64,000 nt of DNA from Spirochaetota bacterium. Lineage in GTDB: Bacteria > Spirochaetota > UBA4802 > JAFGJZ01. The stretch spans positions 966 through 64,965 of the forward strand of contig JAEWVM010000009.1 in NCBI GenBank assembly GCA_023396615.1. The letters run 5' to 3'. The stretch's first letter is position 1. Each line of letters begins with the position of its first letter. Made by a program: the position numbers and the translations under genes. A model generated the notes under the pieces. It worked only from the letters and a program-made list of their open reading frames with translations. It was not told where the DNA came from and did not search any database. Shown piece after piece: positions 22,346-24,013 of this stretch.

Positions 22346-24013
22346 ATGTCACGTAAGAAAATCGGCGAAATCCTTGTTCAAAACGGCGAACTGACTCAAA
22401 CTGAGCTCGAAGCAATTCTTAAACTTCAGAAAGATACCGGTCTGCGTTTCGGCGAAGCATTGCTTAAACGCGGTGCGGTAACCGAAGAAGCTCTTCTTCG
22501 TGCGCTTTCCAAACAGCTTGAAATTGAATTCAGAGCAGAACTCAAGTTTGAAGACCCGGATGGTTTTTTCAAACAGCTGAAGACAAGTTTTTTTGTTAAA
22601 TACAAGATGGTACCTTTCGCCGTCAAAAAGAATAAAATATATCTCGCTGTAAACGAGCCGAGAAACGCGCCTGTAGATGATATTGAAATAATTTTTCCTG
22701 ATTACGAAATACATCTTGTCATTGCCACAGAAACGGAAATCTACCGCGTAATTTCAGAAAATTTTGAAGGCGAAATAAAAAGCGATCTTGCGGAAAACCA
22801 TCCCGATTACGATCTTTTTTCAACTGATATTCTTGAAACTGAAAACATTCTGGAAGCGGCAAACGACGCGCCTATAATAAAACTCGTAAACAGAACAATT
22901 TCTCAGGCAGTCGACAAAAAAGCCAGCGACATTCACATTGAACCGTACGAAAACGAACTGATAATTCGCTACCGTGTTGACGGAATACTTTACCAGATAA
23001 TGTCGCCTCCGAAAAGACTTCAGAACGCGGTGATTTCGAGAATTAAAATCATGGCGAATCTTAATATCGCGGAAAACCGTCTTCCCCAGGATGGCAGAAT
23101 TCAGATTAAAGTCGGCAAAAAGGATATAGATATCCGCGTAAGCGTATTTCCGACATATTTCGGTGAAAGAATTGTATTGAGACTTTTAAATAAATCAGAT
23201 ATGAATTTTTCTATTGATTCAATCGGCTTCATTCCGCATGACCTCACTCTTGTCAAAAATATTCTTTCAAAGCCGAACGGTATTGTTTTAGTTACGGGAC
23301 CTACCGGAAGCGGTAAAACAACAACTCTATACGGAATGCTGACTCACCTAAATTCTCCGAAAGTAAACATTCTGACTGTTGAAGATCCGGTCGAATACCA
23401 GCTTAGCGGTGTCGGGCAGATGCAGGTAAAGCCCAAGATCGACCTGACCTTCGCATCGGGCTTGAGATCAATACTTCGTCAGGACCCTGACATCATAATG
23501 GTCGGGGAAATCCGCGACGGAGAAACAGCAGAGATTGCTGTTCAGGCGGCTCTAACAGGGCATCTTGTTCTTTCGACACTTCATACAAACGACGCGGCGA
23601 GCGGCGTTACCCGTTTGATAGACATGGGAATTGAACCGTTTCTTATTTCTTCATCAGTAAACGCATTTCTCGCGCAGAGACTGTTGAGAAAAATATGTCC
23701 GCATTGCAAAACATCTTACAAGGCAAGTGCCGCGGATAAAAAAATTCTCAAATTATCCAGGGACATCAAGCTTTATCACGGCAAGGGCTGTGAAAAATGC
23801 CTCAACATAGGATACCTCGGCAGAAACGCCATATACGAAATTCTGCCTCTTGATGATGAACTGCGCCGTCTCATCATTACTAAAGCCGATGCGTCTGAAA
23901 TAAAATCATGCGCAGTAAAAAAAGGAATGAAAACACTTTTTCAAAACGGATCCGAAAGAGTTCTATCAGGAGAAACAACTCTTGAAGAACTTGTAAGGGT
24001 GACCGGATTATGA
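22346..24013 (+). CDS. gspE: Type II secretion ATPase GspE with N-terminal tandem MshEN-type c-di-GMP-binding motifs
   Basis: Walker A GPTGSGKTTT, Asp/His boxes, tetracysteine CPHC...C..C. Two 24-residue MshEN-type motifs at the N-terminus: KIGEILVQNGELTQTELEAILKLQ and RFGEALLKRGAVTEEALLRALSKQ. Confidence 0.9.
   Translation: MSRKKIGEILVQNGELTQTELEAILKLQKDTGLRFGEALLKRGAVTEEALLRALSKQLEIEFRAELKFEDPDGFFKQLKTSFFVKYKMVPFAVKKNKIYLAVNEPRNAPVDDIEIIFPDYEIHLVIATETEIYRVISENFEGEIKSDLAENHPDYDLFSTDILETENILEAANDAPIIKLVNRTISQAVDKKASDIHIEPYENELIIRYRVDGILYQIMSPPKRLQNAVISRIKIMANLNIAENRLPQDGRIQIKVGKKDIDIRVSVFPTYFGERIVLRLLNKSDMNFSIDSIGFIPHDLTLVKNILSKPNGIVLVTGPTGSGKTTTLYGMLTHLNSPKVNILTVEDPVEYQLSGVGQMQVKPKIDLTFASGLRSILRQDPDIIMVGEIRDGETAEIAVQAALTGHLVLSTLHTNDAASGVTRLIDMGIEPFLISSSVNAFLAQRLLRKICPHCKTSYKASAADKKILKLSRDIKLYHGKGCEKCLNIGYLGRNAIYEILPLDDELRRLIITKADASEIKSCAVKKGMKTLFQNGSERVLSGETTLEELVRVTGL

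Follow-up and report, generated by a model that had tools for sequence, protein, structure and literature searches.

The type II secretion locus and its ATPase

The window—the whole 64 kb stretch of spirochaete DNA analyzed here—carries one contiguous block of type II secretion system (T2SS) genes at positions 19695-31306 of the forward strand: gspC, D, E, F, G, H-like, I-like, J, K, L, M, and N. gspC (PDZ domain) and gspD (secretin) lie directly 5' of gspE (19695..22343). The gene gspE (22346..24013) starts 2 nt after the gspD stop codon and codes for a type II secretion ATPase of 555 aa. The genes gspF, G, H-like, I-like, J, K, L, M, and N, assigned by Pfam matches, follow tightly packed or overlapping at 24010..31306. 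The last of these is of the Leptospira type, with a TIGR04411 (GspN_Lepto) score of 76.3 bits versus a cut-off of 50. The gsp gene order is identical in the relatives L001 and L003. An 87%-identical relative features, as the only one, an HD_5/HD gene divergent from gspC.

A reading made from the sequence only had taken the ORF at 22346-24013 for a secretion ATPase, and profile and neighborhood bear this out: the ORF scores 665.1 bits with the NCBIfam GspE equivalog TIGR02533, above the cut-off of 630.25, and a complete gspC–N operon surrounds it. A pilus ATPase of the PilB/MshE type was considered and rejected, since the PilB equivalog TIGR02538 stays at 606.7 bits, below its cut-off of 675.65, and the neighbors are gsp rather than pil or msh genes. 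The Pfam domain T2SSE extends over aa 171-551 (E = 2.4e-145), and the N2 and C-terminal ATPase domains occupy 22856..23998 of the forward strand. On the same strand, GspE features the Walker A motif GPTGSGKTT (23297-23323, aa 318-326); the Walker B/Asp box DPDIIMVGEIRD (23483-23518, aa 380-391); the His box TGHLVLSTLHTN (23555-23590, aa 404-415); and a CPHC...CEKC tetracysteine zinc site (23696-23800) with CPHC at aa 451-454 and CEKC at aa 482-485.

The MshEN motifs of the GspE N-terminus

The N-terminus of GspE consists of two motifs, a spacer, and a further subdomain, all on the forward strand. Motif I, K5-Q28 (KIGEILVQNGELTQTELEAILKLQ, 22358..22429), aligns without gaps to R9-Q32 of MshE and forms the first half of the match to the profile NF053729. 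The spacer K29-L33 (KDTGL, 22430..22444) has the same length of five residues as in MshE. Motif II, R34-Q57 (RFGEALLKRGAVTEEALLRALSKQ, 22445..22516), aligns without gaps to R38-Q61 of MshE and forms the second half of the profile match. The MshEN_C subdomain (approximately aa 61-142, 22526..22771), which is supported by Pfam PF05157 (aa 72-142) and by the AF2 fold, is the counterpart of the GspL-binding N1E domain of GspE. The sequence-only reading had placed the motifs at 22358-22517; its ORF, residue numbers, and start (K5 = 22358-22360) hold, and its end lies one base too far (Q57 = 22514-22516).

The same reading had called both motifs perfect fits to xLGxxLLxxGxLxxxxLxxxLxxQ. Both 24-mers fit this simplified pattern once I, V, or F is tolerated at the L positions, but not literally. 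In this relaxed form they are the sole matches in six frames of the whole 64 kb window, and 200 shuffles yielded zero matches. The description as perfect has to be given up against the published consensus, which reads (R/K/L)LGxx(L/V/I)(L/V/I)xxG(L/V/I)(L/V/I)xxxxLxxxLxxQ for each motif: motif I deviates by I6 at position 2 and the non-conservative E15 at position 11, and motif II by F35 and A44 at the same positions. As a regular expression, the strict consensus misses not only the GspE query but also motif II of MshE and both motifs of PilF GSPII-B. MshE thus satisfies it in motif I only and PilF GSPII-B, a 6 nM binder, in neither, so a literal match was discarded as a requirement for binding.

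The register is correct. In a phmmer comparison of the 62-residue N-terminus with MshE (PDB 5HTL), residues 3-60 of the query align without gaps to residues 7-64 of the chain (E = 1.1e-8), with the equivalences K5=R9, G7=G11, G14=G18, Q28=Q32, R34=R38, G36=G40, G43=G47, and Q57=Q61. The assignment to MshEN also stands at the level of profiles: the curated NCBI profile NF053729 ("c-di-GMP_motif") aligns to aa 5-57 over positions 1-53 of 53, with 52.9 bits for the full-length protein and 58.2 bits for the fragment at a cut-off of 38. Calibration on known domains gave 62.6-86.5 bits for the proven binders tested, 55.5 bits for the proven non-binder PilF GSPII-A, and 51.0 bits for the degenerate Leptospira GspE of locus L007. 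The score was therefore rejected as a predictor of binding; because a non-binder passes as well, passing the cut-off indicates homology and not binding competence. Pfam PF05157, although named "MshEN," was likewise set aside as a test, since it covers the C-subdomain alone and the c-di-GMP motifs lie outside of it. Homology to the N-domains of MshE, PilF, and PilB, the curated profile above its cut-off, and the predicted fold together support the N-terminus of GspE as a true MshEN domain.

Predicted fold and conservation

The AF2 model of the GspE N-terminus (mean pLDDT 89.9, pTM 0.82) features a four-helix-bundle N-subdomain with helices 6-12, 18-31, 35-41, and 47-58, followed by an alpha/beta C-subdomain of beta-alpha fold. 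[quoted passage not shown] The TM scores amount to 0.74-0.83 for c-di-GMP-bound PilF GSPII-B, 0.70-0.76 for MshE with c-di-GMP, and 0.65-0.68 for the degenerate XpsE-N. The match of the C-subdomain to the EpsE N-domain in the EpsE–EpsL complex (2bh1_X) is weak (E 0.94, probability 0.41, TMt 0.62).

The contact residues are K5, I6, G7, G14, L21, L25, and Q28 in motif I and R34, F35, G36, G43, L50, L54, and Q57 in motif II. Both motifs are compatible with the known contacts at Gly positions 3 and 10, hydrophobic positions 2, 17, and 21, Gln position 24, and R/K/L position 1: all four glycines that define functional motifs according to Wang et al. and both glutamines are kept, and two of the six stacking leucines are conservatively replaced, by I6 and F35. 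Position 11 (E15 and A44) belongs to the core and has no ligand contact; E15 sits at the normally hydrophobic site of MshE I19. In the C-subdomain, E104 (22655-22657) occupies the site of MshE D108, the Asp contacting guanine. This position carries Asp in 116 of the 119 relatives and Glu in the query; E15 and E104 are changes particular to the small clade of the query at otherwise conserved positions.

In the alignment of the query with these relatives, the spacer measures five residues in 119 of the 120 sequences; G7, L10, L21, L25, Q28, G36, G43, and L54 are invariant or conserved to at least 90%; and Q28, a surface residue with a known role in hydrogen-bonding the ligand, is kept in 117. 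NF053729 is matched by 56 of 58 sequences, namely, the query and 57 Spirochaetota GspE relatives, a set that is a sample of MshEN-bearing ATPases and not a census. The c-di-GMP motif is thus common across the sampled GspE family and no peculiarity of this gene.

Probable binding of c-di-GMP and its possible loss

The spirochaete GspE is likely a c-di-GMP receptor. Slightly more cautiously, an intact MshEN domain on GspE probably binds c-di-GMP in such a way that secretion follows c-di-GMP levels; both the binding and its effect are what we infer. The four-helix bundle would bind one c-di-GMP in the manner of MshE and PilF GSPII-B: the backbone amides of G7-E8 and G36-E37 would read guanine O6/N7; the hydrophobic triangles L21/L25/F35 and I6/L50/L54 would stack on the two bases; K5 and R34 would cap them; and Q28 and Q57 would hydrogen-bond the ribose-phosphate. 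E104 of the C-subdomain may touch the guanine amino group. Bound c-di-GMP would stabilize the bundle and shift its orientation relative to the N1E-like subdomain, which would help the ATPase to engage productively with the GspL/GspF platform, and pseudopilus assembly and secretion would then track the cellular c-di-GMP levels.

Two precedents bear on binding. The T2SS ATPase PA14_29490 binds c-di-GMP via a T2SSE_N-type domain with a Kd of 480 nM (PMC4624772). The start of motif I, "KIGE" with K at position 1 and E at position 4, mirrors the "KLGE" of PilF GSPII-B, in which Lys at position 1 goes along with nanomolar affinity (PMC11731258). The ATPase activity of MshE and PilB2 is unchanged by c-di-GMP in vitro (PMC5013675, PMC11656802), and no secretion phenotype or functional T2SS effect of a c-di-GMP-binding GspE was found in the searchable literature. 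The "directly gated" secretion ATPase of the sequence-only reading is an inference.

The main alternative is a degenerate MshEN domain that keeps the bundle fold and a structural or GspL-docking role and has lost c-di-GMP binding, as in Xanthomonas XpsE and PilF GSPII-A and as predicted for Leptospira GspE; we regard this as rather unlikely. The fragment score of the query lies near that of GSPII-A and under those of all proven binders tested. A match to the consensus is by itself insufficient in GSPII-A, in which restoring the full consensus did not regain binding (PMC12002112). The two clade-specific Glu residues fit this alternative, and I19R is among the changes listed as inactivating XpsE (PMC5013675). 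Among spirochaetes, the Leptospira GspE of L007 has a visibly decayed motif II (PLS for RLG, terminal Gln missing), and the L. interrogans orthologue was deemed an unlikely receptor (PMC12943098). Against loss of binding, the lesions of the known non-binders are absent from GspE, which retains both Gln, the four Gly, R/K as the first residue of both motifs, and Leu as their 17th and 21st. Only four residues precede motif I, so the N-cap helix extension that blocks GSPII-A (PMC12002112) cannot form. The near-invariance of Q28, with its ligand-bonding role at the surface, also argues for retained binding, and single hydrophobic substitutions weaken it only moderately in MshE and NfrB (PMC8669469).

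The PilZ and GGDEF genes as context

The sequence-only reading had also drawn on a PilZ gene just after the cluster and a GGDEF gene at 60.1 kb. The former, at 31721..32098 of the forward strand, begins 415 bp downstream of gspN and codes for a single-domain PilZ protein (Pfam PilZ, E = 2.9e-8) with the canonical c-di-GMP motifs RxxxR (R5-R9) and DxSxxG (D42-G47). The gene does adjoin the cluster, but its connection with the T2SS is unsupported: a promoter-like TTGACA-17-TAGAAT lies upstream of it at 31657-31685, and tblastn and gene tables reveal no PilZ homologue within 10 kb of gspE in the loci L001, L003, L006, L007, and L009. With the PilZ and YlbF proteins of the window as tblastn queries, no match occurs within 10 kb of gspE in any locus compared, and the gene tables of L001 and L003 list unrelated genes downstream of the T2SS. 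These observations bear on an indirect control of GspE, in which the adjacent PilZ protein would bind c-di-GMP and dock on the N-domain of GspE, by analogy with the PilB–PilZ–FimX complex of Xanthomonas. The proximity of the gene, its intact motifs, and the match of the model to the X. citri PilB N-domain of the PilZ complex (7LKO, TM 0.67) are in favor; with the separate promoter-like site and the missing homologues, such control appears very improbable.

The GGDEF gene (60135..62435, forward strand) codes for a diguanylate cyclase whose GGDEF motif is intact, with an I-site of the form RxxD and a sensor domain of the sugar-binding type. The gene is present where stated, but as contextual support it falls short, lying 36 kb from the T2SS beside phosphofructokinase and polyphosphate kinase genes; it shows that the organism makes c-di-GMP, a point in favor of the receptor reading, and carries no link to the T2SS. 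A Pfam scan of the rest of the window (approximately 45 ORFs) found no further PilZ, GGDEF, EAL, or HD-GYP genes, and synteny of PilZ or GGDEF genes with the T2SS is absent in the relatives examined. The context argument for c-di-GMP gating of GspE is therefore weak.

Binding of another cyclic dinucleotide, such as 3'3'-cGAMP, owing to E15 and E104 is speculative and the least probable reading: E104 occupies the site contacting the guanine amino group and MshEN binds cGAMP weakly (PMC5013675), but the G-E/D backbone-amide readout of guanine O6/N7 is kept in both motifs and the window showed no cGAMP synthase.

Implications

The MshEN domain of GspE is an ordinary addition to a known and widespread receptor class. 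Descriptions of the domain and its motif date from 2015–2016, as do those of its occurrence in gsp operons and its broad distribution, and the NCBI profile flags it already. The practical gain lies in better annotation, as a GspE whose MshEN receptor is probably functional, and in one more candidate on the short list of T2SS ATPases for c-di-GMP control. Should the domain bind c-di-GMP, an uncultured spirochaete would have its secretion of exoproteins coupled, at the post-translational level, to the second-messenger switch between sessile and motile life. A wider and tentative reading, for which the matches of 56 among the 58 sampled sequences to NF053729 are the reason, is that non-Leptospira Spirochaetota inherited the tandem c-di-GMP module of GspE from an ancestor and have broadly retained it, that in much of the phylum c-di-GMP switches the T2SS directly at its motor ATPase, and that leptospires lost this control secondarily. 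If true, it would supply the physiological T2SS output missing since binding by PA14_29490 was shown in 2015. In a bolder variant, the E15/E104 pair may retune affinity or nucleotide specificity within the clade.

Comparison with known systems

MshE of V. cholerae (5HTL; Wang et al. 2016, PMC5013675) shares with GspE the two 24-residue motifs, the 5-residue spacer, the identical register, the Gly/Leu/Gln contacts, and a T2SSE ATPase preceded by the four-helix bundle and alpha/beta subdomain. The identity across the domain is approximately 25%, and the changes in GspE versus MshE are K5/R9, I6/L10, E15/I19, F35/L39, A44/F48, and E104/D108. MshE is a type IV pilus motor, whereas GspE lies in a T2SS operon.

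Structurally, GspE comes closest to PilF GSPII-B of T. thermophilus (8PDK; Neissner et al. 2024, PMC11731258). Motif I of GSPII-B starts with K-L-G-E compared with K-I-G-E in GspE and shows that Arg can be dispensed with at position 1 (PMC11731258). Unlike in GspE, motif II begins with Leu and is one residue shorter, and PilF, which has three GSPII domains in tandem, is the ATPase for T4P and DNA uptake.

The degenerate MshEN domains—XpsE-N (2D27/2D28), PilF GSPII-A (9G1W), and Leptospira GspE—have the fold and domain position of GspE. The Leptospira proteins (L. interrogans LIC_11571, PMC12943098, and the L. ainlahdjerensis orthologue of locus L007) are spirochaete T2SS GspEs as well. These domains bear lesions at Gly/Gln contacts or position 1, and in GSPII-A additionally the N-cap helix; GspE has none of them.

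The closest functional precedent is PA14_29490 (HxrA) of P. aeruginosa (Roelofs et al. 2015, PMC4624772), likened here by its published description. Its N-terminal T2SSE_N fragment binds c-di-GMP, and, like GspE, it is a GspE-branch ATPase in a T2SS operon—in this case, that of a proteobacterial accessory T2SS.

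The gspE gene and its operon

The gspE gene (22346–24013, + strand) encodes a 555-aa product beginning with MSRKKIGEILVQNGELTQTELEAILKLQKDTGLRFGEALLKRGAVTEEALLRALSKQLEIEF; no earlier in-frame start is possible, since the ORF list takes the earliest start codon following a stop. The T2SSE ATPase domain covers residues 171 to 551 (Pfam, E = 2.4e-145), and the protein retains intact catalytic and zinc motifs (Walker A, the Walker B/Asp box, the His box, and CPHC...CEKC). With the NCBIfam models, the protein scores 665.1 bits as a GspE equivalog (TIGR02533), above the cut-off of 630.25, and 606.7 bits as a PilB equivalog, below the cut-off of 675.65. 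GspE proteins of uncultured Spirochaetota form the nearest homologs, with identities of 97%, 87%, and 72% and then a large group at 57 to 61%.

The gsp operon (19695–31306, + strand) consists of gspC (PDZ), gspD (secretin), gspE, gspF, gspG, two minor pseudopilin-like genes, gspJ, gspK, gspL, gspM, and a Leptospira-type gspN, and is compact, with neighboring stop and start codons that abut or overlap throughout. The listed TTG start of gspC (19695–19733) adds 13 residues, MTCSTFYYCLTQY, ahead of an ATG at 19734; the latter is probably the true start, with MNILKKHLL... opening a likely signal or anchor sequence. The 300-bp gap before gspC (19395–19694) holds no + strand ORF of at least 30 aa wholly inside it. 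At the equivalent place, two related loci carry a 73-aa ORF directly upstream of gspC (L001, 7102–7323; L003, 6977–7198), in which a Pfam search found no domain. The window has a GC content of 38.5% and features the housekeeping genes hrcA-grpE-dnaK-dnaJ, clpB, tex, and ppk.

Register and consensus of the tandem motif

By coordinate mapping of the gspE ORF, MshEN motif I spans residues 5 to 28 (22358–22429, + strand) and motif II residues 34 to 57 (22445–22516, + strand); the sequence-only reading had numbered the residues correctly, with an end coordinate one base too long. Residues 1 to 62 alone match Vibrio cholerae MshE (5HTL, E = 1.1e-8), and residues 3 to 60 align without gaps to residues 7 to 64 of the MshE chain, which places the motif positions in register. 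The MshE motifs were defined by Wang et al. as R9–Q32 and R38–Q61 with a spacer of five residues (PMC5013675). In motif I, K5, I6, G7, E8, L10, G14, E15, L16, L21, L25, and Q28 correspond to R9, L10, G11, D12, L14, G18, I19, V20, L25, L29, and Q32 of MshE; in motif II, R34, F35, G36, E37, L39, G43, A44, V45, L50, L54, and Q57 correspond to R38, L39, G40, D41, L43, G47, F48, L49, L54, L58, and Q61. The N-terminal 145 residues further match the c-di-GMP-binding domains GSPII-B and GSPII-C of Thermus thermophilus PilF and the PilB N-domains of Geobacter and Myxococcus. The Pfam family named MshEN (PF05157) is confined to residues 72 to 142, and the tandem module is exactly what the curated 53-position NCBIfam model NF053729 ("c-di-GMP_motif") describes: its positions 1 to 53 match residues 5 to 57 at 52.9 bits (cut-off 38). 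When all six frames of the 64 kb window are translated, a relaxed pattern fitting both motifs occurs only here, and none were found in 200 shuffles.

Contrary to the earlier claim, the motifs are not perfect: compared with the consensus in the form broadened by Neissner et al.—(R/K/L)LGxx(L/V/I)(L/V/I)xxG(L/V/I)(L/V/I)xxxxLxxxLxxQ (PMC11731258)—I6 and E15 deviate in motif I and F35 and A44 in motif II, with E15 as the only nonconservative departure. At this position, I19R is counted among the substitutions inactivating XpsE (PMC5013675), and the residues following Gly18 and Gly47 of MshE appear from Wang et al. (PMC5013675) to pack in the helix-bundle core and to make no base contact. The literal consensus is not required, since MshE fits it in motif I only and the binder PilF GSPII-B (Kd 6 nM) in neither motif. 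In the C-subdomain, E104 takes the place of MshE D108, an Asp kept in 116 of 119 relatives; the D108 contact is dispensable, even slightly detrimental, and the MshE N-subdomain in isolation binds c-di-GMP more tightly.

Predicted structure

The AlphaFold2 model of residues 1 to 150, built with 57 homologs, has a mean pLDDT of 89.9 and a pTM of 0.82 and features helices 6–12, 18–31, 35–41, and 47–58, followed by a β–α subdomain. A Foldseek search of the PDB ranks c-di-GMP-bound PilF GSPII-B first (TM 0.74–0.83) and MshE with c-di-GMP second (0.70–0.76); the Xanthomonas citri PilB-N/PilZ complex (0.65–0.70), the degenerate XpsE-N (0.56–0.68), and the nonbinder GSPII-A (0.53–0.54) rank lower. The GspL-docking role of the C-subdomain is taken mainly from homology to other GspE N-domains, since its match to the EpsE N1 domain of the EpsE–EpsL complex (2bh1_X) is weak (E 0.94, probability 0.41, TMt 0.62).

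Conservation in the family

The family alignment comprises the query and its 119 closest homologs. The spacer is five residues long in 119 of the 120 sequences, and conservation within the N-terminus is highest where residues make contacts or turns: G7 (117), L10 (119), L21 (118), L25 (116), and Q28 (117) in motif I and G36 (118), G43 (117), and L54 (115) in motif II. NF053729 is matched at about the cut-off or better by 56 of 58 scanned sequences (the query and 57 relatives), the best of which outscores the query; the module is therefore a family trait and not an oddity of this gene. All four glycines are kept in just 17 of the 119 relatives because motif I mostly has K, R, or N instead of Gly at its position 10, and both glutamines in addition in just eight, among them the small clade of the query. 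Motif II of Leptospira GspE is degenerate, with PLS instead of RLG and the terminal Gln missing, in line with the conclusion of a 2026 study that LIC_11571 is unlikely to be a receptor (PMC12943098). Among the matches listed in a limited genome scan, the same tandem motif occurs in ATPase genes of many phyla, as already reported by Wang et al. (PMC5013675).

Predicted competence for c-di-GMP binding

NF053729 was calibrated on peptides taken from PDB alignments: The binders MshE, PilF GSPII-B, and GSPII-C reach 86.5, 63.5, and 62.6 bits, the query peptide 58.2, the proven nonbinder GSPII-A 55.5, and the Leptospira GspE of locus L007, whose L. interrogans ortholog is a predicted nonbinder, 51.0; Geobacter PilB (68.7) was used as neither. 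The profile thus reports family membership and not binding competence, and its score is ruled out as a predictor of binding, GSPII-A passing the cut-off of 38. Annotation built on this model over-calls c-di-GMP receptors.

Restoring the full consensus in GSPII-A does not restore binding, the cause being an N-cap-stabilized extra turn of helix 1 and intersubdomain contacts (Neissner et al. 2025, PMC12002112). The six-residue N-cap cannot form in the query, since just four residues precede motif I. At the residue level, the query has none of the lesions of GSPII-A (H33 and R62 at the Gln positions, S39, A41) or of XpsE (G11V, L29R, R38G, G40L, L54H, L58C, Q61V). Its "KIGE," with K at position 1 and E at position 4, mirrors "KLGE" of PilF GSPII-B; Lys at position 1 goes with nanomolar affinity in three proteins (PMC11731258), and single Leu-to-Ala changes weaken binding moderately at most in MshE and NfrB (PMC8669469). 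All these points weighed, the N-domain of this GspE is likely to bind c-di-GMP, as judged from its sequence.

Neighboring c-di-GMP genes

The single-domain PilZ protein of 125 aa (31721–32098, + strand) carries the canonical RxxxR (R5–R9) and DxSxxG (D42–G47) motifs and is plausibly a separate c-di-GMP receptor in its own right. Between it and the gsp operon lie a YlbF/YmcA-family gene (31296–31637; Com_YlbF, E = 5e-18) and an 83-bp gap with a near-consensus promoter-like site (TTGACA-17-TAGAAT, 31657–31685). The YlbF gene appears cotranscribed, perhaps translationally coupled, with the operon because it overlaps the end of gspN, stop codon included, by 11 nt. In the five relatives' loci compared—L001 (72%), L003 (60%), L006 (a Spirochaetota MAG), and L007 and L009 (Leptospiraceae)—neither PilZ nor YlbF has a homolog 10 kb or less from gspE, which marks the YlbF gene as a lineage-specific addition. 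The 295-aa ORF after PilZ (32100–32987) has no Pfam domain and resembles the Leptospira LIC_10450 family at 112.6 bits, where the cut-off is 150.

The diguanylate cyclase of 766 aa (60135–62435, + strand) keeps the GGDEF active site intact and carries RSND as its RxxD I-site. A sugar-binding domain of the LacI type (Peripla_BP_3) lacking the HTH is followed by a middle region of about 300 aa with no Pfam match and then by GGDEF; the protein is possibly a cytoplasmic sugar-sensing cyclase. Its gene lies 36 kb from gspE, next to pfk, a histidine phosphatase gene, and ppk. Both genes had been read as support for gating of GspE, a reading that is weak with PilZ not syntenic in relatives and GGDEF this distant; they demonstrate the use of c-di-GMP by the organism and reveal nothing particular to GspE. 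The sole hint of linkage is an HD_5/HD (HD-GYP-like) gene divergent from gspC in the 87% relative. SpoIIE-type PP2C phosphatase genes with differing sensor domains (HAMP, 7TMR-DISM, and cNMP-binding) precede the T2SS cluster by no more than a few kb in the window (11681–13216) and in the related loci L003 (4734–6800) and L004 (4526–5740). The placement of these PP2C and HD_5 genes could be coincidence in phosphatase-rich spirochete genomes.

Proposed mechanism

In homologs, the four-helix bundle takes one c-di-GMP; on binding, helix 1 loses its first turn and the C-subdomain changes orientation (PMC11731258). Binding is needed in vivo for MSHA pilus extension (PMC4624772) and PilF-dependent twitching (PMC11731258). 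Isolated MshE and PilB2 hydrolyze ATP at the same rate with c-di-GMP as without it (PMC5013675, PMC11656802), and EpsE requires EpsL and acidic lipids for ATPase activity (PMC5013675). The ligand-binding bundle of the query would sit directly on the N1E-like subdomain docking GspL. Most likely, c-di-GMP would stabilize the N-domain, position it for engagement of the GspL/GspF platform, or both; its effect would then be to permit assembly of the pseudopilus and not to adjust catalysis. That high c-di-GMP would activate the system is an assumption modeled on MshE.

Comparison with known systems

No system in which T2SS output responds to c-di-GMP was found in the searchable literature, and whether it truly does is the point of some interest. 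A c-di-GMP-binding T2SSE_N of a T2SS ATPase has been known since 2015 (PA14_29490, Kd 480 nM; PMC4624772), and the motif was defined in 2016 together with its occurrence in gsp operons and many lineages (PMC5013675). The module itself is already known: The NCBI annotation pipeline holds a model for it, and one spirochete GspE has been examined before. Compared with most relatives, the GspE described here features, by sequence, a somewhat better preserved motif in an uncultured spirochete host.
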